A DNA stretch of 63,202 nt, the filler included, from Folioceros fuciformis (taxonomy: Eukaryota): NCBI GenBank assembly GCA_049999805.1. It is 9 parts of 9 records of this genome, joined end to end, with 100 filler letters (N's around TTAATTAATTAA, not from the genome) between each part and the next. Parts side by side here need not be neighbours in the genome. Positions count along the whole stretch, not along the records: positions 18,312 to 26,235 come from JBNGIO010005709.1; 8 more parts are not named here. One strand, 5' to 3'. Position 1 is the first letter of the stretch. Each line of letters starts with the position of its first letter. The notes under the pieces were generated by a model. The model had not been told where the DNA came from, made no database searches, and was given only the letters and a program-made list of their open reading frames with translations. The translations under genes were made by a program, and so were the position numbers. Positions 10,364 to 42,618 of the stretch are shown here, piece after piece.

Positions 10364-11182
10364 TCAGAAGAATGTACTGAAGGACCACGAGTAGACGAAA
10401 TTGTTTTCCGTGGCGAACCCAGTGGCAGAGGTAAATCCCACATACGAGCTCGGGTTGACGATGCTTGCCAAATCGAAAGACTTGTAGGAGATGAGACGCG
10501 TTGCTTGAGATTTCTTGGCGGGCGCCTTAGCCGCAGACACAGTCAAGACGTGCTTCTTGGCGTTGTAATCCACCCACACGGTCACCTTCTGCGGATCGTC
10601 ACTCTCGACGACGAGACTGTCGCCGGTGGCCGTGGCAACGGACACGATGCTGTTGACATCCAAGCCGAAGTGGGGAACTGAGGGGTCGTCGAAATCCGTG
10701 TTCTGGAAGGTGTCGATCTCCACCGCAACCGTCTTGATAGCGGGGTCCCCGTTGGAGTAAACGTTGGGGTCGAAGATCCCCAAGTACTCCCCTAGATCGG
10801 ACACGGCGGCAGCGGGCGTGGGCTTGATCACAAACGCCAGCCCGTCGCCGATCGTATTTCCATTGTCCGGGGTGATGGCGAACGTGAAGCTGGTGCTGAA
10901 GGAGGCGGCCTTCTTGGTGTGGGGGTCGACGAAGGAGACGGGCTTGGTTCGGAACACACCTCCCGCGCTGTTCTGGCTGGGGGTCGGGCCCAACAGCGTC
11001 ACGTAGGAGCCGTTGCCCGCGAAGGCCGCACTCGCGCTCAGTGTGATGCCCGACTTGGCGTTCCACTTGGTGACCCTGAATTTCACAGTTGGAGGCCCAG
11101 AGTTCAGAGCCTCACTGGACACGACGCAAAGGAGCAGAGCCACAAGCACACACTGGACCGAGGAGGCCAAGGAGGAAGCCAT
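10364..11182 (-). CDS. Secreted legume-type (L-type) lectin, intronless, no kinase domain
   Basis: ATG 11182 starts MASSLASSVQCVLVALLLCVVSS (signal peptide). Motifs ASFSTSFTFAI, GDGLAF, GEYLG, VAVEIDTFQN..DDP..PHFGLDVNS, VWVDY, YVGFTSATG and VYSWSF are present. Frame is open and GC3-rich. Confidence 0.95.
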   Translation of the reverse strand: MASSLASSVQCVLVALLLCVVSSEALNSGPPTVKFRVTKWNAKSGITLSASAAFAGNGSYVTLLGPTPSQNSAGGVFRTKPVSFVDPHTKKAASFSTSFTFAITPDNGNTIGDGLAFVIKPTPAAAVSDLGEYLGIFDPNVYSNGDPAIKTVAVEIDTFQNTDFDDPSVPHFGLDVNSIVSVATATGDSLVVESDDPQKVTVWVDYNAKKHVLTVSAAKAPAKKSQATRLISYKSFDLASIVNPSSYVGFTSATGFATENNFVYSWSFSTFF

Positions 11183-12127
11183 CACGTCTGCTCTAAACGT
11201 TGGTGCTGCTGGGCTCTGGGCACCGGTGTGGCTCCTGCATTCCATGCCCCGTCCCTAAATATGCACCAGGGAAAGCTGATGGTCTGGGCATGCACGGCGG
11301 AACTGGCGCTACCGGGTCAACTTCGTCAATGGCAAGTATTTTACACCCAGCTGGTGTGCAGCCTTATACTATTGTATCGTTCTCCACGGTTCCAGACTTC
11401 CGCCCATAAGAAGAACACTGCATCAGGTACGGCCTGGCGCTCTCTTCATGCGGCGCCGAACATGGCAACCTTACGCTTCCGGTCCCCAGGTCATGTCTGA
11501 ACGCACCGTAGCGGCCCAAGAGATCGAGACACGCAAGGAACCTGGTTGCTAAGGGACAACGAGGAGGGTTACACAGCATTCACGTGGGGGCGGGATATCC
11601 TGAAGCACGCATCAGATAGCATAAGGCACCAGGCCGGGCGGTCTTGCTTCATGTCAAGACCAGGGTCAGGAGCTCCATCAAGGCATGGCACCTTTTGGCC
11701 ACCGTCATCCAGCTGTGCAGGAAATCTGCAACTTGTTCTAGGGAAAGCTTGACTTGACCACGGACTACGGCGACAACCCTCCAGTTGTCCAGCCACTGCG
11801 TTGCTGGATCACTCCCGGAATGCCCCTGCTCCAACTTTGAATCCGACTCAGCGTGTTCCAAGTTCTGGCCAATAAGAAGCAGCATCTTCTACACTGCAAA
11901 ACGCGACAAGTCCATGATTGTGTAAGTCTGCTGGGATTGGAGACGTGGGTCAATGTAACTTAGCCATGTCCAGATCACTCTCCGTGTGGACAAGACACTC
12001 CACTACATACATACCAGGGCAGCTGGCAACAAGATCTACGTCACCTTTCTCTCCTGTTAGAAAACTGATGTACGTTCGACCTTGGAATATACATACCTTC
12101 GAAAACTGATACACCTTCGACCAGCGA

Positions 12128-12350: not shown

Positions 12351-12769
12351 CGACCAGCACGTAAGTACATAGAGGTTGGACGAATTATAGGATTTAAGGT
12401 TGAGAATTATATAAGGGTTATCCACCTCCATATAAGGTGTGGTTTGTGGTTTGTCACTATCCACTTGCACACAAGATGTAGTTTGTCATTGTCCCTTTCT
12501 ATACAAGGTGTGGTTTGTCATTGCCCACCTCCATACTTGGTGCAGTTTATCATTGCATACTTGTCAACTAGTGTGTAATATGCTTATTACATATATCCCA
12601 TATTCTTTTGTGTATAAGTATAGTATTATACAAAGAGATGGAAACCATCTCACCTTAAAAGAAAGAGAAATAAACCGATGAAGGGCACCACATGCACAAC
12701 CAGGTGCACTAGCCCATGTAGTCACACCTCTTATTATTACCTTCCACAAGGACCACCACGTGCTCATGG

Positions 12770-14825
12770 ATGTGAAAGGGCCTACCTACCATCGCCGAAA
12801 GTCTAAGCTTTAAGGTGTGTATGCAAGGGCCTACCCTACATACCACCGAAGCTCCTAGGTGTGTATGCAAGGGCCGACCCTACATACCACCGAAGCTCCT
12901 AGGTGTGTATGCAAGGGCCTACCAGGGCCTACCCTACGTACCACCGAAGCTCCTAGGTGTGTATGCAAGGGCCTACCAGGGCCTACCCTATGTACCACCG
13001 AAGCTCCTAGGTGTGTATGCAAGGGCCTACCAGGGCCTACCCCACGTACCACCGAAGCTCCTAGGTGTGTATGCAAGGGCCTACCCTAAGTACCACCGAA
13101 GCTCCTAGGTGTGTATGCAAGGGCCTACCCTACGTACCACCGAAGCTCCTAAGTGTGTATGAAAGGGCCTTATGTACTATGAAAGGGTATGAAAAGGCTT
13201 CCTAGGTGTATATGAAAGGGCCTACATACCATGGAAGGGTATGAAAAGGCCTCCTAGGTGTGTATGAAAGGGCCTACATACCACGAAAGAGCCGGACTCG
13301 AAGAAGATGCTTTTCCTAGGTGTGTATGAAAGGGCATACATACCACAAAAGAGCTGGAATCGAAGAAGATGCTTCTCCTAGGTGTGTATAAAAGGGCCTA
13401 CATACCACGAAAGAGCCGGACTCGAAGAAGATGCTTTTCCTAGGTGTGTATGAAAGGGCTTACATACCACGAAAGAGCCGGACTCAAAGAAGATGCTTTT
13501 CGTAGGTGTGTATGATATTTCCTAGGTGTGTGTAATAGGTAGGTGCTTCGCCTACCTACCACCGAAGGTCGAAGCTTCAAGATGTGTATGAAAGGGCCTA
13601 CAGACCACCAGAGCTGAAGAAGCTACTTTTTCCTAGGTGTATATAATAGCTAGGCACTTCTTCTAAGTGTTCATTAAAGGGCTTAGCTATCACCGGAGTT
13701 AAAGAAGCTCCTTCTCCCAAGTGTGTATAAAAGCGCCTACCTACCACTAGAGTCAAAGAAGCTGCTTCTCCTAGGTGTGTATGATAGGTACGCACTTTTC
13801 CTAGCCTACCATCAAAGTCGAAGAAGCTGTTCTCCTAGGTGTGTATAATAGGTGGGTGCTTCTGCTAGGTGTGTGTGAAAGGCCTATCTATCACCATAGT
13901 TGAAGAAGCTGCTTCTCCTAGATGTGTGTAAAAGGCCTATCTATCATGGGAGTTTAAAAAGCTGCTTCTCCTAGGTGTGTATTAAAGGGCCTACCTACCA
14001 TTGGAGTCAAAGAAGAACCTTCTCTTAGATGTGTATGATAGGTAGGCACTCATATTAAGTGTGTGTAATAGGTAGGCACTTCTCCTAGGTGTGTGTGAAA
14101 GGTCTACCTATCACCACAGTCGAAGAAGCGACTTCTCTTAGGTTTTTATGATAAGTAGTCACTTCTCTTAGGTGTGTGTAATAGGTAGGCACTTCTCCTA
14201 GATGTGTGTAATAGGTAGGCGCTTCTCCTAGATGTCTGTAATAGGTAAGCGCTTCTCCTAAATGTGTGTAATAGGTAGGTAGTTCTCCTAGGTCTATGTG
14301 AAAGAGCCTCCCTATCGCCGGAGTCGAAGAAGTTACTTCTCGTAGGTGTGTGTGAAAGGGGCTACCACTGGAGTCAAAGAAGCCAGTTCTCGTAGGTGTG
14401 TGTGAAAGAGGCTATCTACCACCAGAGTCAAAGAAGCCACTTCTCGTAGGTGTGTGTGAAAGGAGCTACCTACCACTGGAGTCAAAGAGGCCACTTCTCC
14501 TATGTGTGTGTAGGGGCTACCTACCACTAGAGTCAAAGACCTATTATCATTGGAGTTGAAGAAGCTACTTCTTTTAGGTGTGAAAGAGTGTCCTTATCAT
14601 AGGAGTCGGAGAAATTGCTTCTTTTGGGTGTGAAAGGGGCTACCTACCACGGGAGTCGAAGAAGTTGTTCTTCTTGGGTGTGAAAGGGGCTACCTACCAT
14701 AAGAGTTGAGGAAGCTATACGTTTAGTGTGTAAAAAGGCCCACCTACCACCGAAGTCGAAGAAATTGCTTCTTTTGGGTGTGACAAGGCCTACCTACCAT
14801 GTGAGTTTAAGAAACTGCTTGTCTT
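12770..14825. repeat. ~2 kb minisatellite (units ~30-60 bp, core CTCCTAGGTGTGTATG..AAGGGCCTAC..TACCAC) with a divergence gradient
   Basis: Near-identical 44/55-bp units at 12815-13150 grade into GAGTCGAAGAAGCTGCTTCT-type units. The array is cut at 14826 by a Copia LTR. Confidence 0.9.
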
Positions 14826-18311: not shown

Positions 18312-18722
18312 AACCCTAAACCCTAAACCCTAAACCCTAAACCCTAAACCCTAAACCCTAAACCCTAAACCCTAAACCCTAAAACCCTAAACCCTACACC
18401 CTAAACCCTAAACCCTAAACCCTAAACCCTTAAGCGTAAACCCTGAACCCTCAACCCTGAACCCTCAACCCTACACCCTAAACCCACAACCCTCAACCCT
18501 CAACCCTCAACCCTCAATCCTTCACTCTTAACCCTTAACCCTTAAACCCTTAAACCCTTAAACCCTTAAACCCTTAAACCCTTNNNNNNNNNNAACCCTT
18601 AAACCCTTAAACCCTTAAACCCTTAAACCCTTAAACCCTTTACCCTTGACCCTTTACCGAAAACCCAAAAACCCAAAAACCCAAAAACCCAAAAACCCAA
18701 AAACCCAAAAACCCTAAACCCG
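18312..18722 (-). repeat. Arabidopsis-type telomeric repeat (TTTAGGG)n at the contig start, grading into variant repeats
   Basis: CCCTAAA units at 18312-18430, then blocks of CCCTCAA, CCCTTAAA and CCCAAAAA. Confidence 0.95.
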
Positions 18723-21446
18723 TAAACCAAAAAAAGCAAACTCTGCCAGTTCCCGGGGCCTCTGCTCATGATGTGGACTCCACATACTCCCCTTCTCACT
18801 TGTTTGCGTCCTTGTCAACTGCTGATAATATTTTTTCACCCACCAGCCATTAACCCTGGTTGGCAAGTTAGGGCCGTTGAGGTGCTGTAGTTGGATGGAT
18901 CCATTCTCGTACACTTCTAGCACCCTGTAAAGGCCCCATCCACCTGAATTGCAGCTTGCCTAGAAAGTGTATGTACCTATTGTCATATAATAAGGCCAAA
19001 TCTCCAGGCATGACATGCTCTTGTTTACGCAACTTCTAGTCATGCCATTTCTTTCTCCTCTCATGGACATCAAGGAAAACAGCCAAGGCCTGTTCTCTAT
19101 CCTTATCATGGTGCACAAAATTGGTTAGCCTCTCCAGTTGGCTCTCCTCCATTGGCAATCGATTGCTCTCCTACATTCTCAAGGTGGATACCTCAAATTC
19201 GATGGGCATGACCGGTGAGTGTCCATAGGTGAGGTAATAAGGGGTCTGCTGGGTAGTAACCTTCTCCGTGAGTCCATTGGCCTTAGGGTTGTAGGGAGTG
19301 GTCTTCCTATGACTGATATTGAAATATTCGGTCATGTGCTTGACCACTTCATTGATGAAGTGAGTCCCCCTATCACTCGCCAGCTCCAATGAGCACCCAT
19401 ACCTCATGATGATTTGCTCAAACAAAAATCTAGCCACCACATTTGCTGTGTCCACGGGCAAAGCTTGAGCCTCCACCATGCGTGTGCAGTAGTCGGTTAC
19501 CACCAAGATGTATTGGTTCTGCCTTCCCTTAGACTTGGGCTGAATTGGTCCTACAAAATCAATCCCGCACTTCTCAAATGGTGCTAGGGCTAGGATGGGG
19601 ACCAATGGCCATTGTGTGGTCCTAGTAGGCTTCCCCACCCTTTAGCATGCATCACACCTCTTGATGAATCCTCCAGCATCAGCATGCATTGTTGGCCATC
19701 AATACCCTGCTGCCAGAATTTTTCTATAGGTCACATGGGCTGCATAATGCCCCCCAGCCTCTCCCTCATGTAAGGAGCTGATAACTTGCTCCACTTGGTC
19801 AGGCTTGACCCACAAACGCTCCACGCCATCAGCCCTTTGCGATACAGCCTGCCCTTGCACTTAACGACTAGTCTTGTGAAGTACAAGAACAGCCGCTGCT
19901 GCTGCCATGAGAGATCAGCTGGAAACTCCCCCATGCCTAAAAAATCAGACACCTCTTGGTAGGAAGGCTTACGGAACCCCTTCTCCCCTTCTCATTTGGT
20001 GCTGCACCTTCACCTCTTGGCAGCCTAGCATTTGGTTGGGCCCTCTCCCTCTCCACTAGGTCTGCTGAAAATGCCTCATCCGGAAAATCATCTTCTTGGT
20101 CTTGAACCACCTTCTTTGTCTTCAGCCTTGACAAAAAATCAGCATTCACATGCCTGCGCCCTTCCCTTGTTTCCACGGTGAACGTGAACTCTTGCAAGAG
20201 AAAGATCCAGCGGGCTATGCGGCCCGATAGGTCTGCCTTGTTGACCAGGTGCTTGAGAGCAAAATGATCAACGTGGAAGACAAACTCATAAGAGAGAAGG
20301 TAGTGGCAAAATTTACGACATGAATAGACCATGCCAAGTGCCTCCTTCTCGGTTGTGGTGTACTTGCGCTCAGCCTCCGTGAGTTGGCGTCCAGCATAGT
20401 AGATTGAGTAGTCCCTCCCCTTCTCATCCTGCTGGCTAAGGACTGTCCCAATGGCAATGGCTAAAACATCCACGTACACATGGAATTTCCTATCCCAATT
20501 AGGTCCCTTGAGGGTTGGTGCTGTCACAAGGGTGGTCCTCAAGTCATGAAATGGAGCCTCCCTCTCCTCTGTCCATTCCCAAGATTGCTCCTTCCTCAAC
20601 AGGTTGTCAAAGGAGCAGCCGTCTAGCAAAATTGGGCACAAAACGGCGATAGCACCCCACCATTCCAAGGAATCCACGCAGCTCCTTAAGTGTGGTTGGG
20701 GCCCTCAAGGCAGCAACCACCTTCACCTTGTCTAGGGTTTAGGGTTTAGGGATGCTATCCAACTTAAATGCCCCTTGCTGAAATTCTGTGACCTAGCAAG
20801 ATCCCTTCAGCCATGCCAAAATAGCATTTCTCCGGGTGCAAACAAAGCTGCATCTCACGGCACTTGGCCAAGCATAGCCTTAGGTGCTCCAGATGCTGCT
20901 CCACCCCTCTAGACACACAAAAATCATCTATGAACACCTCCAAGAACTTGTGAAGGAAATCCTTGAAGATCTTGTACATGCTGCGCATAAAGGACCCTAG
21001 TGCTCTTATTAGCCCAAAAGCACTCCTCTTGTAGGCAAATGTCCCCCAATCAGTTGTGAAGGCTGTCAATGGCCAGTTACTCTCCCTTAGAGACAGCTGA
21101 TAGTATCCAGAATAGCCATCCAAAAAGGAGTAAATCATGCGGCCTGCCACCAAATCCAGAATGTTATCAATGAATGGCAAGGGGATATGATCCTTCTTGG
21201 TAGCTTTGTTCAGCCTTCTCCAGTCCTAGCACACCCACATCTTCCCCGGCTGTTTCTTGGGCACCACCACGATTGGGGCCACCCAATCTAAATTCACAAT
21301 TGGAAAAATCACGTCTGCCCTCAAGTACTGCTCCAACTGCTCCTTTACCTTCATGGAGAACTTGGGATTCAGCTTGTATTGTGGAATTCGGACGGGAACA
21401 GCTCCTGGCTCCAAGTAAATCTTGTGCTCCCCCCACTCCTTGGGAA
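18723..21446 (-). mobile_element. Ty3/Gypsy non-chromovirus (Athila/Tat-like) RT-RNase H-integrase with PPT and start of 3' LTR, degenerate
   Basis: Motifs WVAPIVVVPKK, YSFLDGYSGYYQ, VFIDDF, YTTTEKEALGMV, GIDFVGP, SDRGTHF, and GPY..YENGSIQL..TRVNG. PPT GAGAAGGGGAG at 18787-18797. LTR starts TGTGGAGTCCACA at 18784. Confidence 0.9.
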
Positions 21447-24382
21447 TGATGAAAATCTAGCCTTGCTCTTAGATGCAAATCCCAGAATGTAATTGAATTA
21501 TAATGAAGTAAAGTACAAGCCTTTATATAGGCTAGGTGGTTGAGGTGGTTGAGGTGGTTGGGCGGTTACAACTATAAGTAGTTGTAACCAAAAGTGGTTG
21601 TAACCATTAGTTGTAACCATAAGTGGTTGCAACTACTAACTACCTAGAATAACTACTAGGTAACTACATTATATGGTAGCATCTACAATCGCCCTAATGA
21701 ATATTGCCCTATACTACCTATATTTTATCACTCCCACTCACTATGAATGTAGGGGTGAAAAATAGCTTCAAAATGAGTCTACTTAGGCTAATAGACTCCT
21801 ACTAGATCGAAAGATATTAGCTTAAAACTTGAGCTAGTTGAAAAATAACTTAACTCCAAGGAACCTGGAAAGAAATATATTCAAAGCCTTGCAAACAAAT
21901 TGGTGTGGTATACTGAGACGGGGCTGCTGTGCAGAGCTCCATCAAAACTTTGCCATTAAGAACTCCACCCTTGGATGAGTACCGGGATGGGGGGCCTGAT
22001 GCAAAGCTCTCCTCTTTTGAAATCAATGATTTAAAGTGGATGGTTAAGCTGCCTGCTCTTGGATCAGCACCGGGATGGGGGGCCTGTGAATGGACCCCCC
22101 CCATTAAAAATAAATAAGGTGTGGCCCGAAAAGTCCAATGGGATAAGCCCAAAGCGGGCTGATCCACGGGATGTGTCGGCTGGGGCCGCCTGATTGGCGG
22201 CCATAGGGGGCCGGTATGGCCATTGGCCGGCCGCACCATGCTGCCGCGCATGAGCCACGGCCTACGGGGAGAAGCCATCATTTACGACGCTCTCTCCGCA
22301 TCTCGATGCTCATCTCTTGCTCCCTTCGGTGCGCCCCGTGGTGCTCCTGTTTTCCACTGCGCCGCATCTTCCGCTGCACCTTGCTTCAACCATTGCGCCG
22401 CGCTCCTGGGGAATAGCCGCGCAATCTGATTTGTTGCGCTCACCGACAGAGACCCTTGCCGCGACGCCTGACGGCAGCCGTCGGGCTGCCAGCGGGGATG
22501 AGGTCGCAATTTGTTGAGGACCACAATTGCCCGCCTCAGAATACTAATTAATGTCTCTGTTGTAATATGTGCAAAATTGCCATCCTGCCAAGTTGTGCGC
22601 CGGCGCGGTTGTGGTTTCATAAAATCTTGGTGTATTTTTGTAGATTGGAGGCACATTTGTGCACAATGGCACGTCTAAAGGGTGAGTGGCCGCCTTTCCT
22701 TTTCTTTGTTTTTTTTTCAGTTTTCTTTAAAACTTTATTGTGGCAAGTCCCCGTTGTGTGGAGGAAGGTCCCCATGCCCCCCCCCGGTGCTCCAAATGAC
22801 GGGAACATAAGAAAATTGGCACGCACCCTGCGCATGTCCTATAGGAAAAAGAGAGTAGCAAGAAAATGCCGAGATGCCCGATTGCGTGGTGAGAAAATCC
22901 CAAAAAAGGGTCTAGGTCATAGTATAGAAGACCCAAATTTTAATGTGGAGTTCCTCCAAATGTGTGCAAATGCTGCAAAGATGGTTGAAAATGTGGCAAA
23001 GGAGGAAGAAGAGGACTTGATAGTAGTCCAAACTCATATCCAAAATGCCGAAGTCGTTGTCGAGGAAGTAAAAAATACGGGTAAGTAAACCAAAAAACTT
23101 TGTTAAAAATAAAAGCATAGTATTTGTTGTTGTAAATACTAATAATTGTTGATGTAGATATTCCAAGGCAAATAATATCTCCCACTGTCTCCAAAAGTGG
23201 GAAACCATCAAACGAAGACTTAGAAGCCATATCTTCGGAGGAATCCCATGTGAAAATAGTCCCCTTGAAGATGTGGAGGCTATAAAGACAGAACCAATGG
23301 TAGCAAATTGGAGTAAAAGTAAGTAGGAAATGATAAAAGTAAGTAGGAAAATAGGTAGGGGTACCTATGTAGGCTAAAAGCTAACATTCTTCCTAATGAA
23401 AACTACTTCTTTTGCAGGTGTAGATAAATGTGTAGGCACTGACCATGTAAGGATGGCTATACCACTAAAAGTAACCCAAGGAAAAACAAATGGAAAAAGG
23501 AAAGTACTGAGTTCCTATTTGCCACCTAGGAGTCTTTCAAGAGCTACTTACATAATATTTCCTGAGGAACCAGATGACCATGAAGCTCCCAAAGAATATG
23601 TATGTGACAAAAAGGGAATAAAAATGATGTGGTTAGGTGCATCCCCATGCGAAGAATATGAAGGATATACGAAACACTTATATAGTAGGTTTTCTAACCA
23701 CTTAACTATATTATTCCTAATCATTTTTATCACTTAACCAATTGACTTTGTTGTAGGATCTTTTTGGGCATTAGAGAGAGAAGACAAGGAGTACAGTGAA
23801 GACTACTTAGAATTAGAAGCTGAACTTGAAATGCTAGATGACCTGTGTGGTTTATAGTTAGGTTCTCTTGACTAGTAGGTCAGTCTTAACTTTACGTATT
23901 CCTAAAGTTTTCATATGTTTAAGATGTAAATCTCTGCCTAATGACTTGGTTAATGAATCAGCTGGATTTTCCTGGGTTTGTATATAATTTATATCTATTG
24001 TTTTATTTTCTGACATCTCACGTATGTAATGATATTCAACAGCTATATGCTTTGTCATGGAGTGGAAGACAGGGTTTCTAGCTAAGGCTATGGCTCCCTG
24101 ACTATCACTGAAAAGAGGTGTGGGCTCATTTTGAGAATAACACAACTCACTCAATGCAAACCTGCTCTAGACTATATCTTTTGAGACTGAGGTTGGAATT
24201 CTATACTCTGATTCAGTACTTGACAAAGCAATAGTAGGTTGTTTCTTACTTGACCATGAGATGGGAGCACCTCCAAGTAGTAGAATGTAACCTGATACAG
24301 ATTTTCGACTTTTAGGGTGTCTAGCATAGTCGGCATCGGCATATGCAGTTAATTGTAACTTGGATAGGCCAGGTGTATGACT
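21447..24382 (-). mobile_element. Ty1/Copia 3' end (RNase H, ~2.1 kb post-pol region, PPT, 284-bp 3' LTR) inserted in the Gypsy RT region
   Basis: RNase H ORFs 24167-24424 (YADADYA..KKQPTIALSSTESEY) and 23858-24154 (KHIAVEYHYIRE). PPT TGAGTGGGAG at 21731-21740. LTR 21447-21730 has TGATA..CATCA termini. Confidence 0.88.
22774..23857 (+). CDS. Predicted 4-exon antisense accessory gene inside a Copia element (~278 aa; one 1-nt deletion in exon 2)
   Basis: Exons 22774-23080, 23158-23318, 23418-23684, 23757-23857. Introns GTAAGT..TAG (77 nt), GTAAGT..CAG (99 nt), GTAGGT..TAG (72 nt), all phase 1 with CTAAT/CTAAC branch-like motifs. Stop TAG 23855-23857 abuts the pol stop at 23858-23860. Confidence 0.7.
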
Positions 24383-26235
24383 TAGCGTAAATAGGATCGA
24401 CAGGCTAGCATAGGAAAGAAACATAAATGAGTGAGAATTAATTAATATGTGTGAGTGTTTAGGGTTTTATGGCCGTGTCCCGTGAACCTGTACGACAGTT
24501 GACGGGTAACGATTCGTTAGGGCACGTTTCATGCCCGTTCCTATAACGTGTGTATGCTTAACCTAAATCTACGCTTAACGCCGAGAAGCGGGCTATCCTA
24601 GGGCAACCATCTCTCGTTACCCCCACTTAGACCGCATTCCCGCCGTTGTGAACTCACTTGCGCCGTAATCTCCGGCTGTCCTCACCTTTTGCACACACTC
24701 CGTCTGCAGAACGGATTGCAGCTATGCTGAGTGTTGGCGGCCTTTCTCACTTGGATGGAAGCTTCGTCCTTTTGCTCTTGCTTGCGCTGCTGGTTGGCGT
24801 CGCTCTCTAGGAACATAAACGATTTGCCGAGAGGTGTCCAGTGCCCCAGAGGACTCGCAGGTCTTCAATGTAAGACAGGAAGGAGCGGCTTCTTCAAAGG
24901 ATGAGATCACTGCATGGAGAGTTGCGGCAGCTCGGGGGGTTGCCTTCTTGTTTTGATGCAGAAGACTTCCACAAGTTGTCGCCGTGTCCGGGTCTCGCAA
25001 TGATTCTTGAGTCCGCTCAGAGTGATGCAGAGGGTAACCTGGTCTTCAGGTTCGCTCCCTTTTGGAGGTGCCCTGAAGCAGCGGCAGAGATGGCAGGCTT
25101 GTAGTTGATTTACCTGTACACGCACAAGAGTGAAGCAAGGTAGCAATTCCCTTGTGTGCCCATCTGCCCCCACTGTTTGTGACAAGGCTAACCCCACTGC
25201 GGGTGCGTGCTCGTGCTGTGCAGCTGTGCAAGTGTCAAAAGCTTGCTTAAGTGCCGAGCCCCAAACCCTTGCAGTGAGCGGTGTGACGGTCCTTTGGAAG
25301 TGGCTTCGTGAGTAAATCTGCTAAATTATGCTCTGTGGGTACGAAGACTAGATCGATTTCCCTAGAGGCTACAGTCTGCCTAATGTAGTGCTGCTTGACA
25401 GCTATGTGTCGGGTTCGTGAATGATGCACTGGATTTTTGGACAAGGCTATGGCTGACTGGTTGTCGCAGTATACAGTAGTAGCTCCGAGTTGAGGAAAAC
25501 CCACAGATGCCATGAACAGGCGGTTGTAAACAGTTTCTTGAGTAGCTGCAGTTGCAGCTGTATATTCCGCCTCTGTACTGGACAGGGCTACAACTGTCTG
25601 CTTCTTCGATGTCCAGTTGACCACACCTCCACTTAGCATGGTACAGTTGGCAGTGATGGATTGTCTGGAATCCTCATCTCCTGCCCAGTCTGAATCCGAG
25701 TAGCAGATAAGTAACGTCTAAAGTAAATTTCTGAGTAAAGGTCATAAGTAATCATGAACTTTTCTAGCATTTGCCTTACATAATGTGCTTGATGGCAGAA
25801 TATGCTTCCCTTATCAGGACTAATGCAAATTTGTATGCCTAGGAAGAAGGTGAGCTGTCCAAGATCTGTCATGGAGAACTCGGCCATGAGAATTGACCTA
25901 ACCTTCTTCATAATTCCTGGGGAGTTAGCAAAGATCAGCGCGTCATCAACGTACAAAGCTAAGATTGCAAAGTCCTGCCCATTTCTGTAGATGTACACAT
26001 TTGTGTTAGCATCACTTTGGACGAACCGTGGCTTGAGTAGATAGTCATGGATTTTCTGGTACCATACTCTCGGTGCCTGCTTCAAGCCATACAGGCTTTT
26101 CTTAAGTCTGCAAACCTTATGTGGTTCAGTTTTGCTGACGTAGCCCTTAGGTTGCGTGATATACATCTCCTCCTCGATTGTGCCATGCAGGAAGGCAGTT
26201 TTAACATCCATGTGCTGGATGTCCAGCTTGTGTTC
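24383..26235 (-). mobile_element. Ty1/Copia element (RT with internal deletion, RNase H, PPT, 237-bp 3' LTR with TA..TA ends) nested in the previous Copia
   Basis: ORFs 25633-26211 (MDVKTAFLHG, LYVDD) and 25247-25639 (KKQTVVALSSTEAEY). PPT AAGTGGGGG at 24620-24628. LTR 24383-24619 reads TAACG..CGCTA on minus. Confidence 0.88.
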
Positions 26236-26335
26236 NNNNNNNNNNNNNNNNNNNNNNNNNNNNNNNNNNNNNNNNNNNNTTAATTAATTAANNNNNNNNN
26301 NNNNNNNNNNNNNNNNNNNNNNNNNNNNNNNNNNN

Positions 26336-28364
26336 ATTTTTGTAGGTTATGACTTGGAGAGAAAAGCTTTTCGATTGTATGACAAGGGAGCGAAGCGTGT
26401 CATAATTAGTAGGGATGTGATTTTTGAGGAAAATGGAGTTGCTATCACTAAGATTCCAAATGTGTCTATTGTGAATGATGATGATGACTTTACAGTGGCC
26501 CTAGAAGAAACAACAAGGGATGATGCTTGTATTGAAGAGAACAAGGGGATTTCTGATGAAGGAGAAGTAGAGGAGCAAGCACAAAGGCAAGAAATGCCTC
26601 CACCAAAGAGGTATCCGACAAGGGAGCGACGGCCACCTAAGGATTGGAGAGAAGGACCAGAGTTTGCTTCCATTGCTATGACACACGGAAGGGAACCATT
26701 GACTGTGGCTGAAGCTCTACAAGGGAAGGATTGCGAGCACTGGAAAGAAGCCATGGATGAGGAGATGAGGTCCCTTGAAGGTAATGATACATGGATGTTG
26801 ACAACATTGCCCGCAGGAAGGAATGCCAATTGGGTGTAAGTGGGTGTTTAGAATCAAGAGAAATGCAAGTGGGAAAATTGATAGATTCAAGGCTAGGTTG
26901 GTGGTGAAGGGATACTCCCAAGAGGAGGGCATTGACTACAATGAGACATTTGCACCAGTTGCCAAGTTTGCATCCATCAGAACCTTACTTGCAGTGGGAG
27001 CAATGTATGATTTGGAGATTCATCAAATGGATGTGAAAACAGCATTTCTAAATGGGGACTTGGAGGAAGACATTTACATGGAGCAACCCCAAGGCTATGT
27101 AGTTATGGGCAAGGAGAACATGGTTTGCAAATTGAAGAAAGCTCTTTATGGATTGAAGCAGGCTCCAAGAGCTTGGTATCAAAAGATTAACTCATATCTT
27201 TTGGAGCAGGGTTTTCGGCAATGCACATCAGATGAGAGCATCTACATTTTTGAGGTCTCCCAAAGTAAGGTAATCTTAGCCATATATGTGGATGATCTTA
27301 TCTTGTTGAGTCCATCTTTAAGCAGTATTGATAAAGTGAAGGAGATGTTGTCAAAGAAGTTTGAAATGAAGGACTTAGGGAACATCAACTATTGTCTTGG
27401 AATTGAAGTGCGGAGAGATAGGGCAGCACGTATCATCAGGCTTGGTCAGCAAGGGTATGTTGAGGGATTATTGGAGCGATTTGGAATGATGGATTGCAAG
27501 CCTATTGGGACCCCTCAAGACTTAGGTGTGAAGTTGTGTAAGGTTGACTACTCATCAAATGATGGGGAGGAGCATGAGATGAGTAACATCCCATATAGGG
27601 CAGTAGTTGGAAGTTTGATGTATGCCATGGTAGGAACACGTCCAGACATTGCAAAGGCAGTGGGAGTAGTGAGCCAATTTATGCAAAGCCCTGGAAAGCA
27701 ACATTGGATTGCGGTGAAAAGGATCATGCGATACTTGAGAGGTACAAGTGATATGTGGTTGGAATTCTCGGGTGGAATCAAATGCCATAATATTATTGGG
27801 TATTGTGACTCCGATTGGGGAAGTGATCTTGATGATAGAAGATCAACTACAGGATATACTTTTATTTTAGGAGGAGGTGCCATTACCTGGAATAGTAAGA
27901 AGCAACCCACGGTGGCCATATCGACAGTTGAAGCTGAGTACATGGCATCCACACAAGCCACCAAGGAGGCCGTATGGTTGAGAAAGCTCATGGAGGAGAT
28001 TGGTTATGAACAATTGCATCCGACCACTCTTAGGAGCGATAGTCAAGGAAGTATGGCCTTGATCAAGAATCCAGTGCATCATGCAAGGACAAAGCATATT
28101 GACATTCAACATCACTTTGTACGTGAGAAGGTGAAGTTATTGGAGGTTACCTTTGAATATTGCAACAGTGAGGAAATGGCTGCAGATTTCTTAACCAAGG
28201 CAGTGAGTAAGTTCAAGTTTGAGAAATGCAGGGGACTACTTGGACTGAAGCAAACTCAAGTGCGCTGAGTGGGAGTGTTAAGCATGATTAATGTTGATAT
28301 TAATTAGTGCTAATCCAGCTTATTGAGTTTGTACTAATTAGTGGTAAGAGTGATTAAGGTTATG
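26336..28364 (+). mobile_element. pol: Ty1/Copia integrase C-terminus, RT, RNase H, PPT and start of 3' LTR
   Basis: ORFs 26354-26839 and 26823-28268 (KARLVVKGYSQ, YVDDL, YCDSDWG, KHIDIQHHFVRE) are separated by a 1-nt frameshift at ~26828. PPT TGAGTGGGAG at 28266-28275. LTR starts TGTTAAGC at 28276. Confidence 0.96.
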
Positions 28365-37520: not shown

Positions 37521-40500
37521 AAGGCCGAGACAGAGAAAGAATTGCAGGTACGGCCTCCTGAGGTGGACTGTGCGCAGGCTCAGGTACAGCCGGGCCCCTC
37601 CCAAGCATATGTCTCGCGAGGACTTCACAAAAGCGAGTACAGGGTTAAAGTTGGGTCCGCTAGCGGATGTGATCATGGAGGCAAGTTTTTTTCAAAGAGA
37701 GGAGGACAAACTCTCTGCCAGCTTGATTGTGGGGCGCCATATGTCTGGAGGTCCTCCTACCGTGGAGGAACTAGAGGAGTGGGTGGCTCGGGTAACGGGA
37801 TGCCCTCTAGTGTATGTTTTCTTGAAAGCAGATGGTTCTTTCCAGATTAAGTGTGACGAGGCCATTGGGGCGCAGGCTCTTCTACAAACAACACTGTTCG
37901 TCTGAGATTCAGTACCGGTGGTGGTAGAGGCCTGGTCTCCCGGGAACTCCATCATGCAATCTAAAATCAAGCGGCATTTCCTGTGGGTGCATTTCAGCTC
38001 GTCCCACTGGTTCACACAATTTTGGGGACCATTGGTAGGGTGGTGGAGGTCCCTAAGGTGGACTCCAAATTCTTTGATAGCACCAAACCACCCCGTTTCA
38101 GGGTGAGGGTCGACAGCCTCCAAGATCTGCCTGACGGCGTAGTTGTTCGTGATCCGGAGGACCCATCTAAGAGTTTTACACAACTTTTCGATTACCCGAA
38201 TCTTCCCATCCGGTGCGGAGTGTGTGGCTTGCATAATCATCTAAAGCAGGCTTGTCCTTTACGGGCTAGATCGGGAGGTCGGGGCGAGACTTCGGAGAAG
38301 GCACATTCTGGCCCCCTGCCTGGCTTCAAAGGTGCCCCTACGAAGTTTTGGAGGACTAACCCGGGAACGCAGTTGTGGGCAAAACGAGTTCAGGAAGTGT
38401 TCTTCTCGGGGAGTGGGGGCGTACACAATGCACAGGCTCAGCTGTGTGTTCTCCTGAGGAAGAAAATGGATAACACTTACTTTTATTGGATGCCGAAGGG
38501 AGGAGACCTCAGAGCCTTACCTACACGCTCATTCCAGACCGGCGGGTCGATTGGGGGTCAGCCTCTTGGGCTCTGGTCTACCGCTAGACTAAAAGTCAAG
38601 GGCATGTTGCAGGCGGGTTTGGGGTTTGATGAGCAAGCTATTAACATGATCTTGCAAGAGGCACGACATAGTTTGGTGTGTCACAGAGTGGAGGATAGCT
38701 CCTCTATCATATTCGTGAATACCTTGATTGAATTGAAGGACGAATGTCGAATCCAAGACTTCAAGGTTTCGCAGTGGATGGGGGAGCCCCAGTTGTTGGC
38801 TTACATCAAGGATGCAAAATTTGGCAAAGGTAGGGTGACTCTAGCCTCTAGAAAAGTGTTCAAGGCACATCTTGGCTTTCTTGGGGTTATCCATGCCTCG
38901 ATATCGATTAAACTCCCCGGCAGTTGCAGTTGGGAGCTAAGATGGGCAGAGGATATGACAGCTGAGGCTACGATGCCTATGGAAGAGGACTCCAACAGTG
39001 GGGACGTAGGTAGTGCGGCACCAGCAAAAGGTTTTAAAGGTCCTGCAACTGAAGACAAGGGTTACATCGGGGGGGCCCATCAAAGGGGAAATGCTCATCA
39101 GCTCAACAACCCCGCACCACAGCAGGCATCTTTTACTCCCAGGCAGGAAGCAAGCATTGCAGGGATCGGACTCCGAGTTACACTATCAGGAGGAAAACTG
39201 CAGGGTGGGGTAAGTAAGGCAGCTGGTAGGACGGGCTTGCAGGGGGAGTTGGGTCAACCTCATACACTGGGGAATCAAAGACAAAGGTAGACATCTTGGT
39301 CAGCCTCTCATGGGGAGCGGCAGAGGGATCTTCAGAATCTAAAGGCAGGGAAGCTCCATAGCTTCCCGGATAAGTTTGAGAAGCGCAACCTAGTGCCTCA
39401 TTTGGCAGTCTCACTGACAAACTCAAGAAGGAATCCATGGAAGCAGTAGAGTGTGATGCCTTGGTGGGAGAGCAGGCTGTGAGCTCTGCTGAAGTGCAAA
39501 AGGCATGGCCTGAGGCGCAAGACGAAATGCTTGCAGGTGGTTCGGTGATAGACGGGTGTAAAAGATCCCTGGCTTTCAGCATGGAGAAGGAGATGTGGGA
39601 TTGCTCGGGCGGCGCCCCTGGCTCGCTTTATTTTTCTGGAGCCACACAAGAGCTTCCCTCTAGCGGTGTTGGCTCAAATGGCGCAGAGGTTGTGTCTCCG
39701 TCGTCATCGCGTTGGGATTCAAAGCAAGAAGAACCGGGCACGGAGGGTGGCAAAGCCTTGGGGAGGAAATGTGTGGACGGGCTGGATAGTCGGCCTAGCC
39801 AGCTAATTCAACAAGACCCTCTCAGGGATCTGGAAGATAGGCTTTTGAGGGAGCGATCTAGTGAGGTTTCTCCAGGAACTGGGCTTGGGGGATGTGGGTA
39901 AGCGGTGCAAGTACCTCCCGTCGAGACAGCTTGGGAGGACGAGGGCATGGTTGCAAGAACGGCTGTCGAGGCAGTGGTCCAGCCTGACGGAGGGGCCTTG
40001 GCGTCGGTGCAAACAAAACTATCACTCCCTTCTATTAAGGCTCAGAAGAACTGCTCCAACTTGGCCACAGGTGCAGGCTGGGTTGGGGTGGAGGGTGTCC
40101 CGAGGGCTGGCCAAAGCCCGTCGACGGGTGAGCACGAGAATTTTGGGGTCGTGGCCGACGATAGAGCTGACTTTGTGAGGCGTCCGAATGGTGTGGCCGG
40201 ATGTCGACAAGGTGACCTAGGTGAGGCAAGGGCGTTGTCGGCTCTCGGTGCCGGAATTCTCCAAATAGTGGCTGTCCAAGAGGGAGAAGTGAGTCCGGCT
40301 CCTGGGCCGCCTGCTACTTGCCAGAAGGCACCCTGTGGGTTTGACCCTGGGAAGGAAGCCGTGGATCGGCAGGTGGAATTTCCGGTTGATGGGCTAATGA
40401 TGAGACATGTGGTGATGGGCAGGCATGACGTAGGTGTTTGGGGTCACTCAGTCGCAAAGGGATGGGCTACTCAGGCAAAAGGCAGCAGGATGTCACCGGC

Positions 40501-42618
40501 GGGGGGGAACGGATCCGGTCCCCTGATTCCAGAGAATCGCCCAACCAAGGCCCAGGTCGTAAAGACTCAGCATCCTGGTCTCCTGGATGGGGTTTTCGAG
40601 CTCCCGTCCCGGCAGCTAGGCGGGGAGGAGGGGGAAGTTCCGGTGGTGCCGCCTGTTTGCGATACTAGCTCTGAGGACGGGTGGTGCAGCCTGGTGAGCG
40701 CTCCAGGTGTATGGCAGCAGCTGTTTTCCTCTGAGGCATTTGACAGCTACCAACCTCTAGCTTGCGACAGTAAGAACTCTCTAGAGAAGGAATATTTGAG
40801 GTGTGGGGAGGTGTAGCACCAACCTCACTCGGCGCTGAAATGGAGGGAAGAGGTACATGAGGAGAGCGAGGCAACTGGACTAGGGATCCAACATGCCGAC
40901 CGGTCCCAAAGCCAGGAGGCGGCTTCGGATCCCTCAATAGCGAAGATGCAGGACGGGAAGGCGAACTTGGGTGATTTACCTCCTCCGCTAGGACCGAGGG
41001 CATGCCAATTACAGTTTCGAGTACTAATACAGGCCCCAGCACAACCCCAGATGTGCTAACAAGAAGGCCTTCTCAGACGTTCTGTGATAGGTTGGCCTCT
41101 GCGAGCTCGAGCCAGGGGTTAGGATCTGTCGTTTCCGCTCAAGCTGCTGGGGAGGAAGAGGGAAGGGAATCTTCCCAGATTCTTTATGGGCCCCAATCTC
41201 TTGATTCAACGCCGGGCTGCCCAGTAATTCGCGACGTGTCAGCACCTGGTCATTAGTCTCCCGGGCTTGAGATGGCCCCCGGTCCTAATGGATCCATAAA
41301 GCCAGGAGCAGAACCGGCTTTCAAGTCCACTGCCTGGAAAGCGGTAGCAACATCTGTCTCGTCCACAAGTGAGCAGAGGACCATGGAGATGGTAGCGGGG
41401 AAGAGGACTCGTGCCCCGGAAGATTTGTCTCCAGGCCATAAACGTCAGAATCAGATTGCCTTGGCCAAGGCAAGGAAGGCGTTGAACAAAGCTGTGCAAC
41501 ACATGGCTTTGGACATCACCTTCCCGGAAGGGAAAAAGCTTAAGGTGCTAGAAGGAATAAGGGGTGGTCACAAGTTTCTCAGGAAGATTTCTGTTGGCGG
41601 GGGGAACGCCCCTTTGGTAATCCGCAGTCACCACAATTATGGAGCAGGACGAGGATCTGGAATGGATGGAAATGACTCTGCATGTCTCAGTAAACTCGCC
41701 GTGGTAGGTAACAGCCCCACAAAATGTGCCACTCCCATCATGAGAGACAACGCGATGTTCGCCTCCAAGGAAGATCTTTTCTCCACTCCTTGTGCTGAGG
41801 TAGATGAGGATGCTGATACAATCTGGCATGAAGTGCAGGCTGTTTTCTCCGGGGATGAAGGCAGCACTTCTCCGTCTAACTCCTTGGACAAGGACTTGGT
41901 GCAGGCTAAGAGGGTGCAGGATGGGTACCCTCCTATAGGGCAGGAGGTGTATCACTTGTTAAGAGTTCAGGAACTTAGGAAGGCGGAAGGCACATCAAGG
42001 AGAAAAGGCCGACATTTTGTGATCAACCTAATGGTTATGAGAAAGGTTCATCTTTCCGTTCTGGTCATGATAGGAGGTGAGGGGGAACAACTCCCTCTTG
42101 TCGTTACACTACATCAGTTGCATGCAGGCCAAGACAAGATTCTTGACTTGTATACCGGAGGGGTCCCTGTAGGCAAGGAGGGTAAGGAGGTGGAATTTTT
42201 CAGTGGTATCTACCAGAAGGAGGGTCGTCTCTTTGCTGATATCTGGCTAAAGCAAGACATTGGTCCCAATTTACCACTTAACCCAAAGTGGAGGTGGTCC
42301 TTGGATGCGCCTTGGGCAAAAGACAGGTTTGGGGGTCCACACTCGGCAGCGAGTGATGCTGAGGGGCCCTTAGCTGGTCAAGATTGGAGGCCTGCCCCTG
42401 CGACTCGCAAGTCGGAAAGGCTTCAAAGATGGTCCCTTGAGCTAAAAGTTAAGGACCATCTGGCGTGGCATAAGTCAGTGATTGGGGCTAGGATGCCCAA
42501 GCCGTCTGCGATACGAAATCTCTCAAGCAAGTCCCGTTAAATGAGTTTCGACACTTTGAAGAACTACGAAAGGGGGCCTCATTTGCGGATCATTTCCTGG
42601 AATGTCAGGGGTCTGGGG
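37521..42618 (+). mobile_element. L1-clade LINE: very long ORF1 (DUF4283-like plus CCHC knuckle) and start of ORF2
   Basis: VVVEAWSP..LWVH..LGTIGRVV..FRVRVD..YPNLPIRCGVCGLHNHLKQAC, in ORF pieces up to 42540. ORF2 starts at 42541 with MSFDTLKNYERGPHLRIISWNVRGLG. Confidence 0.9.

Follow-up and report, generated by a model that had tools for sequence, protein, structure and literature searches.

Does the plus strand directly behind a Copia pol gene of Folioceros fuciformis carry a spliced antisense gene, and does such a gene belong to the element? The question concerns one locus in the window, i.e. the whole 63,202-nt stretch of DNA analyzed here. The initial annotation had read this locus as a four-exon gene lying between pol and the PPT of a single Copia element. 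Our tentative answer, to which we assign a probability of about 0.45, is that the Copia copy called B below carries an antisense accessory ORF, which is secure only for exons 3 and 4.

Elements around the locus

The "Copia element" turns out to be a composite, in which two different Copia pol ends (A and B) stand in tandem, and the idea of a single element is given up here. Copia B is represented by the RNase H end of its pol (23858-24385, minus strand), comprising the last ~176 codons, truncated at the 5' side, with its stop at 23858-23860 and an in-frame stop at 24167-24169. In tblastx it aligns to the C-terminal 170 aa of an intact Copia pol at 27759-28259, and its nearest database polyproteins, which are 45-62% identical, carry RVT_2/rve (PF07727/PF00665). 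The RT of Copia B itself is absent from the contig. Copia A (25247-26235, minus strand) retains RT and RNase H, has its pol stop at 25247-25249 and is interrupted at 26236 by the scaffold gap. It gives an RVT_2 match with an E value of 3.3e-46, and tblastx likewise indicates Copia. The RVT_2-type RT of Copia A and the Copia-type pol C-terminus of Copia B agree with the Ty1/Copia assignment.

The stretch between the two pol ends (24386-25246, minus strand; GC 0.52, CpG o/e 0.79, depth 100-545) yields no Pfam match and may be the post-pol region or an LTR of Copia A. The left flank of the locus is a Ty3/Gypsy pol fragment with RT, RNase H and integrase (19171-21225, minus strand; RVT_1, RT_RNaseH, rve), and the high-copy signal stops near 21870. 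A single contig of a presumed RNA run (X4) matches, in the Gypsy part only, and is uninformative on expression. An Rfam search of 18594-26235 returned one sub-threshold miRNA match only, with 28.7 bits vs 90.

Exon-intron structure of the putative gene

The putative gene is read from the plus strand, opposite to pol B on the minus strand, so that the ORF is antisense to gag-pol. Exon 1 (22774-23084) starts with an ATG at 22774 and is held in a stop-to-stop ORF of 178 codons (22552-23088). Its strong donor, G/GTAAGT, lies at 23081 in phase 1; nested at the end of the exon is a weaker one, GTAAAC at 23085, in phase 2. Intron 1 (23081-23157, GT-AG, 77 nt, GC 0.22) is followed by a doubtful "exon 2" (23158-23318, 161 nt) and by intron 2 (23319-23417, GT-AG as GTAAGT...TTTTGCAG, 99 nt, GC 0.34), the donor of which is duplicated in a perfect 17-nt repeat 20 nt downstream. 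Exon 3, the "core" (23418-23684, 89 codons), and exon 4, the acidic tail (23757-23857) with its terminal TAG at 23855-23857, enclose intron 3 (23685-23756, GT-AG, 72 nt, GC 0.28), which keeps the frame but contains one in-frame stop, and is rich in T and poor in G. All of these features are on the plus strand, and the peptides quoted in the initial annotation are present.

Several features of the joints were counted in favor of an antisense gene. The AT content is 66-78% in the introns vs 55-62% in the exons (exon GC 0.38-0.45), the acceptors TTTTGCAG/G and TTGTTGTAG/G are found, and the frame stops of exon 1 and exon 2 fall inside the donors GTAAGTAA and GTAAGTAG. GTAAGT occurs 17 times on both strands of the window, three of these sites being at 23081, 23319 and 23339.

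The four-exon model with three phase-1 introns survives only in part. The ATG and the three AT-rich GT-AG introns stand, but the exons as first proposed total 836 nt, which is no multiple of 3, and the reading frame across the 23080/23158 join hits a stop at 23283-23285. Since "exon 2" is 161 nt long, phase-1 introns on both of its sides are impossible, and it is open only in a frame other than that of the 23080 junction. Only two joins give an open frame: that from the nested donor at 23085 (279 aa), and the direct join from 23080 to 23418, which skips exon 2, yields 224 aa with the terminal stop only and leaves both introns in phase 1. In full, the gene is most economically modeled with three exons, at 22774-23080, 23418-23684 and 23757-23857 (224 aa), and "exon 2" may simply be part of a single 337-nt intron (23081-23417).

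Two observations on contigs were set aside. A DNA contig joint from 23679 to 23753, skipping 73 nt, was rejected as a case of intron 3 loss because its ends do not match 23685-23756, and loose contig ends at 23594 come from a run (X3) that looks bisulfite-converted.

Coding signal and chance expectation

The periodicity of G across codon positions distinguishes three of the proposed exons. In exon 1, G at positions 1/2/3 is 0.39/0.17/0.21, a contrast reached by 0 of 2518 null ORFs, and the stretch upstream (22552-22773) shows no periodicity of this type. The corresponding values are 0.32/0.18/0.14 in exon 3 (null fraction at that level 0.002) and 0.47/0.16/0.19 in exon 4, a level again reached by 0/2518 null ORFs, although exon 4 has only 32 codons and the null ORFs at least 80. 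The window holds 216 natural ORFs of 80 codons or more, and each of the three exons lies above their 90th percentile (0.115). "Exon 2" has no such periodicity in either frame (0.057 and 0.061, matched by 21% and 19% of null ORFs), and with no coding signal in either of them it is a doubtful coding exon. The claim of an antisense gene behind pol is thus supported in part, by the coding-type periodicity of exons 1, 3 and 4 on the plus strand, but not in exon 2. Part of the G periodicity could stem from GAR-rich low complexity. Codon-usage log-odds also favor the open frames, but this measure was set aside because absent stops bias it.

It is possible that there is no gene here, the plus strand being purine-rich over the untranslated tail and the flank of a decayed Copia and yielding ORFs as a by-product, with the GT-AG "introns" as chance matches from a 63-kb TE-rich window. 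We consider this unlikely. The length of the ORF alone is unexceptional, since 18 of 188 natural 1.3-kb window/strand values of this TE-rich window reach at least 338 aa, and the reverse strand also gives a spliced ORF of 288 aa; nevertheless, the best spliced ORF (354 aa) was reached by none of 100 dinucleotide shuffles, whose maximum was 276. The first model was out of frame, and no homologue, domain or confident fold (exon 3 pLDDT 48) accompanies the ORFs, but three separate exons show the periodicity, each precisely in its open frame, and it is absent from the introns and from the upstream stretch. In addition, GTAAGTAR holds the ORF ends twice, and the 3' part occurs at pol-like depth.

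As the initial annotation had noted, the TAG at 23855-23857 directly touches TTA at 23858-23860, the TAA of the minus-strand pol ORF. Such abutting stops are commonplace and within chance expectation: at 4 of the 4 minus-strand pol ends examined, one frame or more has an antisense stop that lies 0-11 nt away or overlaps. The minus-strand translation of the stretch behind pol resembles a shadow frame, with no credible sense ORF there.

Copy number and element boundaries

To estimate copy number we used the summed depth of DNA contigs from the source organism, which are collapsed short contigs, with a single copy at ~10. The summed depth of 23436-23857 (200-540, the range of exon 3) is comparable to that of pol B (224-673). 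Two contigs, ~11% different, bridge the pol stop without gaps, at 23609-24034 (depth 115) and 23609-24085 (depth 81), demonstrating that the 3' 250-420 nt, i.e. exon 4, intron 3 and much of exon 3, travels with the pol end in multi-copy contigs. Therefore, 23436-23857 appears to be kept about as well as pol across the family, and at least the 3' 250-420 nt belongs to the Copia family and not to a neighboring host gene. The GC3 values point in the same direction, those of exon 3 (0.26) and exon 4 (0.34) matching Copia-B pol (0.28) and not the other TE genes (0.46-0.56) or the lectin gene (0.78).

The 5' part of the model behaves differently, and several of its features were counted against an accessory gene. 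Exon 1 has a depth of 9-11, equivalent to a single copy, vs tens of copies for exons 3-4; the proposed linkage to Copia pol holds for the 3' part, and exon 1 and the GC-rich tract are only possible members of the element. Between them, 23088-23435 has a depth of 15-67, with steps at ~23435 and ~23088. The CpG o/e falls from 0.72-0.95 left of ~23085, including 0.72 in exon 1, to 0.17 on the right. Upstream of the ORF, the tract 22140-22520 is GC-rich, as annotated (GC 0.64), and CpG-rich (CpG o/e 0.95). It has a summed depth of 25-40, corresponding to 2-4 copies, and lies between the inverted repeat arms 22066-22080 and 22777-22791. This tract may act as a promoter, belong to a 3' LTR, or form part of an unrelated low-copy unit.

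The proposed location of the putative gene between pol and the PPT is seen at one end, where the pol stop adjoins. At the other end, the annotated PPT (22777-22785, minus strand; G9, then CA, then TGGGGACC) is one of four purine-run candidates on that strand, and no LTR pair was found, the repeat search having paired nothing with 21000-24000; the failure to find a 3' LTR was likewise counted against the accessory gene. A search for PBS motifs gave no site near the putative antisense gene. The depth drops from ~22 to ~9 at ~22740, near this candidate. An alternative PPT at 23387-23394 (minus strand), AGGAAGAA directly followed by TGTTAGC, is the only one of the four purine runs abutting TG, and would place a short LTR at ~23101-23386. 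It sits in "intron 2", where the internal region of the element would then end, which was also counted against the accessory gene.

These observations form the basis of the main rival explanation, a chimera in which Copia B ends at ~23100 with a short 3' LTR (23101-23386) behind the PPT at 23387-23394. Exon 1 and the CpG-rich tract would then form a low-copy sequence of their own, representing another low-copy repeat or else the opening exon of an orphan host gene with a TE-hit intron, and the element-borne antisense ORF would be limited to ~129 codons (from an ATG at 23396 to 23684, plus 23757-23857). The joint shift of depth and CpG o/e near 23085-23100, the sole purine run abutting TG and the difference in GC3 between exon 1 (0.42) and exons 3-4 all agree with such a junction, as does the GC-rich unit with inverted repeat arms of its own. 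However, a near-consensus donor ends exon 1 on the same strand and in a phase fitting exon 3. The TGTTA...TAACA ends are legible at 23101 and 23386, but a terminal match of 5 nt is weak, and a true LTR is expected to match or exceed pol in abundance, whereas the depth over 23088-23435 is only 15-67. Exon 1 is also without a homologue among known proteins. We regard the chimera as rather unlikely.

Homology and origin of the ORF

Searches for related proteins were largely blank. Queried with exon 3 against 1.84 billion representatives, phmmer returned two matches, both tandem-repeat artefacts, and the ESM Atlas gave no usable match. For exon 1, word-index protein searches at near and longer lengths found none, and Pfam had nothing significant for the five exon translations and the 178-codon ORF. 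Since the nearest pol relatives are only 45-62% identical and the database is without close relatives, the blank homologue search is weak evidence. For exon 3, no related locus was found in viral_contigs or metagenome_contigs. Relatives of pol B were not found in viral_contigs; in the metagenomes there are twelve distant Copia loci (42-58% identity), none with an exon match at E < 0.1. Collecting further copies, as the initial annotation had suggested, gave none within the window by tblastn or blastn, and nothing was learned from structure prediction, the single-sequence AlphaFold2 model of exon 3 having an uninformative mean pLDDT of 48.4.

The retained introns, as expected of a genomic fragment, and the apparently single-copy full-length form would also fit a host-gene fragment transduced a single time, in antisense orientation, into the Copia-B lineage, as passive cargo with no role in the element. 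According to passages of PMC7264820, capture is a recognized origin of extra ORFs in one or few copies. Nevertheless, no exon matches any cellular gene family by phmmer, word-index or Pfam searches, in a database without close relatives of this genome; the GC3 of exons 3-4 is element-like, unlike that of the one host-type gene of the window; and the 3' part is multi-copy. We consider a single capture quite improbable.

Comparison with known antisense and extra ORFs

ORFs that run antisense between pol and the 3' LTR have been described as a class, documented for Gypsy elements of the Tat/Retand type in sections of PMC7264820 and PMC11963269. Plant Ty3/Gypsy examples treated in parts of these papers and of PMC4093653 are maize Grande gene23, rice RIRE2, Silene Retand and bean PvRetro13. 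As portrayed there, the Gypsy ORFs resemble the present one in lying directly behind pol in antisense orientation without similarity to known proteins, and in having basic regions compatible with nuclear localization, the protein of Grande being nuclear (PMC7264820, PMC11963269, PMC4093653). The differences are also clear. Those elements are Tat/Retand and the element here is Ty1/Copia; the region from pol to the LTR spans 2.9-6.6 kb in the Gypsy elements vs at most ~1.1 kb here; and the present introns are predicted ones. The Retand ORFs mostly carry Transposase_28 (PF04195), which is absent at E <= 1 from our five exon translations, where only DUF6717 appears (E 0.17, 12.8 bits, cut-off 27). 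In the pertinent table of the bean survey, 15 of 15 antisense-ORF2 families are Gypsy, and two Copia families belong to the env-like/ORF2 list. Our literature search turned up no publication on a spliced antisense ORF of a Copia element, and the main text of PMC6317226 contains no occurrence of antisense or extra-ORF words. Within the window, Copia A and another copy, Copia D, have no comparable antisense ORF, which was counted against the accessory gene.

Sense env-like ORFs occur in Copia elements, namely in Sireviruses. These likewise have an extra ORF behind pol, but in sense orientation and with transmembrane features, whereas the sense strand here holds no credible ORF. The env-like class is described in part of PMC7264820. 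The antisense, spliced HBZ gene of HTLV-1, transcribed from the 3' LTR and mentioned in passages of PMC7264820 and PMC11963269, offers an analogy in layout only, i.e. an antisense gene at the 3' end with a promoter on the 3' LTR side. Unlike HBZ, no bZIP or other domain was found here, the promoter is putative, and the host and element class are unrelated.

Proposed reading and implications

We tentatively conclude that the Copia-B family carries an accessory ORF on the opposite strand, directly behind the pol stop and broken by spliceosomal-type introns; its membership in the element is secure only from exon 3 to exon 4, intron 3 included. An antisense transcript would presumably start in or near the 3' LTR side and be spliced by the host, and the introns would survive into new copies because they are antisense in the genomic RNA. 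The predicted protein is an orphan of ~130-280 aa, rich in Lys and Glu and acidic in its C-terminal tail; a basic N-terminal cluster would be added only if exon 1 belongs. The protein, or the antisense RNA itself, might modulate the element, as proposed for Gypsy antisense ORFs. The suggested role as a nuclear regulator, with anti-silencing or transactivator function, is drawn only from the basic cluster and the acidic tail, which are also what purine-rich DNA translates to. The wider claim, a Ty1/Copia lineage with an intron-bearing antisense gene filling the space from pol stop to PPT, a CpG-rich 3' LTR promoter and an orphan basic/acidic nuclear protein, seems unlikely.

The copy lies within a dead, truncated and nested element and can thus be no more than a relic of such a gene, a single decayed copy in a heap of nested TEs whose statistics look coding-like. 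A second set of antisense ORFs, not homologous to the first, lies at 46520-47370 behind another Copia pol and, if the wider claim is true, would suggest that such genes arise repeatedly in the Copias of this genome. If real, the ORF described here would show that antisense accessory genes, described from Gypsy Tat/Retand elements, also exist in a Copia lineage, and would provide a compact (~1 kb), intron-marked case for testing antisense splicing and the role of the protein.

The gene model and its coding signal

The initial annotation had proposed a plus-strand antisense gene at 22774-23857, inside a Copia element whose pol end is called Copia B here, with exons at 22774-23080, 23158-23318, 23418-23684 and 23757-23857. 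Its ATG (22774), its three GT-AG intervals and the quoted peptides are all recovered, and the TAG at 23855-57 directly adjoins TTA at 23858-60, the stop of the minus-strand pol ORF. The proposed plus-strand introns, 23081-23157 (77 nt, GC 0.22), 23319-23417 (99 nt, GC 0.34) and 23685-23756 (72 nt, GC 0.28), separate exons with a GC of 0.38-0.45. The four-exon join as written fails: the exons sum to 836 nt, exon 2 measures 161 nt, and reading from the 23080/23158 junction meets a stop at 23283-85. An open frame of 279 aa results if the donor is shifted four bases downstream, to the nested GTAAAC at 23085, and the other proposed junctions are kept. When the strongest donor, G/GTAAGT (23081), is joined straight to the strongest acceptor, TTTTGCAG/G (23417), exon 2 is skipped and 224 aa result, with both introns in phase 1. 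The frames of exons 1 and 2 end at stops within GTAAGTAA and GTAAGTAG. Three of the 17 GTAAGT sites in the window lie at 23081, 23319 and 23339; a perfect 17-nt direct repeat at 23314-23350 (TAAAAGTAAGTAGGAAA, 20 nt apart) doubles the donor site of intron 2.

Within 22540-23860, the longest ORF obtainable by splicing is 354 aa for the plus strand and 288 aa for the reverse strand, and 100 dinucleotide shuffles of this region gave at most 276 aa. When the whole window is searched, 18 of the 188 window/strand tests contain spliced ORFs of at least 338 aa, most of them covering TE genes, so that ORF length alone is not special here. We regard the reading that no gene is present as unlikely. Codon-position periodicity is more telling than ORF length. 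For exon 1, the frequencies of G at codon positions 1/2/3 are 0.39/0.17/0.21; for exon 3 they are 0.32/0.18/0.14, and for exon 4, 0.47/0.16/0.19. Of the 2518 null ORFs, none attains this contrast for exon 1 or exon 4, a loose comparison for exon 4 because it is short, and 0.2% do so for exon 3; in all three exons it also lies above the 90th percentile of 216 natural ORFs that are 80 codons or longer. Exon 2 lacks such periodicity in both frames, as do the introns and the upstream portion of the exon 1 ORF, and the minus-strand translations resemble shadow frames. We take these patterns as genuine evidence for present or former coding in exons 1, 3 and 4; "exon 2" is probably not an exon.

Pfam gave no significant match for five exon translations, and a homologue search with exon 1 returned none. 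Exon 3 has no true match among 1.84 billion representatives and none in the ESM Atlas, viral contigs or metagenome contigs; its single-sequence structure model has a pLDDT of 48. These blanks are weak evidence, since the closest database relatives of Copia B pol are themselves only 45-62% identical. The suggested role as a nuclear regulator draws on a cluster of basic residues and an acidic tail, both of which purine-rich DNA readily gives; the role is putative and remains an analogy with Grande gene23 and HBZ (excerpts of PMC7264820, PMC11963269).

The Copia element and its copies

The locus lies on a gap-free contig (18594-26235). The window, which contains 22 N runs, has the look of plant genomic DNA and also carries several Copia and Gypsy fragments, including a Gypsy pol fragment (19171-21225) to the left of the locus. 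A plant-type telomere-like (CCCTAAA)n array at 18312-18580 decays to CCCTCAA-type units and has scaffold gaps on its flanks. Long ORFs of 441, 173, 304 and 427 codons, without Pfam matches, follow in series at 37965-42540 (+).

By tblastx, the minus strand carries two tandem pol C-terminal (RNase H) segments. Each aligns with the last ~170 residues of an intact Copia pol at 27759-28259, and their mutual identity is only 42%. Copia A (pol stop 25247-49) retains RT (RVT_2, E 3.3e-46) and RNase H; Copia B covers 23858-24385 only, with an in-frame stop at 24167-69. Therefore, the pol touching the TAG comes from a second element and is a decayed piece truncated at its 5' end. Between the two ends (24386-25246) lies an 860-nt GC-rich, CpG-rich, high-copy stretch, and the arrangement at 23858-26235 suggests that one element inserted into another or that the region was rearranged. 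No LTR pair including the region was found within the window.

Evidence from other copies comes from DNA contigs of one sample of the source organism (three runs), placed at a likeness of at least 80%. A single presumed RNA run contributed nothing at this locus, a blank that says nothing about expression. Summed depth is 20-40 at 21870-22739, 9-11 (single copy) over exon 1 (22740-23087), 15-67 at 23088-23435, 144-202 at 23436-23609, 371-537 at 23610-23783 and 164-673 over Copia B pol. Contigs at depth 81-115 span 23609 to 24034/24085 across the pol stop with ~11% differences and no gaps. It follows that the pol-stop/TAG junction, together with at least exon 4, intron 3 and a large part of exon 3, belongs to Copia B at the family level, retained about like pol. 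GC3 agrees, being 0.26 in exon 3, 0.34 in exon 4 and 0.28 in Copia B pol, against 0.46-0.56 in other TE genes and 0.78 in a lectin ORF. The latter (10367-11254, minus strand, 296 codons, legume-lectin domain, E 1.5e-52) is the one coding sequence clearly of host type that was noticed in the window. Given this retention and composition, we consider a captured, passively carried fragment improbable. Our leading reading, at a probability of about 0.45, is that Copia B bears an antisense accessory ORF, secure for exons 3 and 4 only.

Exon 1 is unlike exons 3 and 4, with a single copy, a GC3 of 0.42 and a CpG o/e of 0.72; from 23085 onward CpG o/e is down to 0.17. An unrelated 5' exon, making the full model a chimera, would account for this break; we find this reading somewhat unlikely. 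The GC-rich tract at 22140-22520, suggested earlier as a promoter, indeed has a GC of 0.64 and a CpG o/e of 0.95. One DNA run, X3, looks bisulfite-converted, C>T/G>A making up 70% of its differences over 21000-26200 versus 32% in the other runs. Its contig over the tract (22211-22595) mismatches at only 41 of 385 places, which would imply methylation of most of the cytosines in this tract for that sample.

Two element layouts fit both sequence and depth. In layout (a), the whole ORF would be internal to a rare Copia B subfamily, with the minus-strand G9 run at 22777-85 as polypurine tract (PPT) and the GC-rich stretch leftward (2-4 copies) as LTR; a GC/CpG-rich stretch also lies behind Copia A. 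In layout (b), the internal region would close at the PPT-like AGGAAGAA/TGTTAGC (23387-94), which alone among four PPT-like candidates has its purine run directly against TG. On this layout a short LTR would reach ~23101, exon 1 would come from an unrelated sequence of low copy number, and the ORF carried by the element would have ~129 codons. Neither accounts for an inverted repeat (22066-22080/22777-22791) overlapping the G9 run and a 29-nt direct repeat. A ~25-29-nt motif (…ACCGGGATGGGGGGCCTG) recurs at 21970-21998 and 22058-22086 (direct, 88 nt apart) and, inverted, at 22768-22793, overlapping the G9 run and the start codon; the inverted pair flanks a ~700-nt GC-rich unit.

Relation to known antisense ORFs

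In the Gypsy families Grande, RIRE2, Retand and PvRetro13, antisense ORFs have been described in the interval from pol to the 3' LTR; most Retand ORFs carry Transposase_28, and all 15 of 15 antisense-ORF2 families in a bean survey are Gypsy (excerpts of PMC7264820, PMC11963269, PMC4093653). The present ORF resembles this class in position and orientation, but differs in its Copia context, its size, the absence of Transposase_28 and the proposed introns. Our literature search yielded no account of a Copia element with a spliced antisense ORF, which does not disprove that one exists.

Within 46520-47384, plus-strand ORFs also lie behind another minus-strand Copia pol end, which has its stop at 47382-84 and whose RNase H shares 51% identity with Copia B over 134 aa. 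A 142-aa ORF from ATG 46520 has an AT-hook-like GRP motif and basic clusters, and its stop falls inside a donor-like site, GGTAAAAG; acidic segments after it end at TAG 47368-70, which leaves 11 nt to the pol stop. Splicing could give an ORF of 238 aa. The periodicity of this ORF set is modest, and the set has no Pfam match and no detectable similarity to the present ORF. Just downstream of a further minus-strand Copia pol end (stop 15160-62), several tandem repeat families with periods of 30-62 nt occupy 12761-14825; tandem arrays in the pol-to-LTR region are reported in the Retand paper.

The evidence for the antisense gene is solely statistical, and the copy described here is a relic. If true, the accessory ORF of Copia B would be a Copia variant, with proposed introns, of an antisense ORF class already known from Gypsy families.
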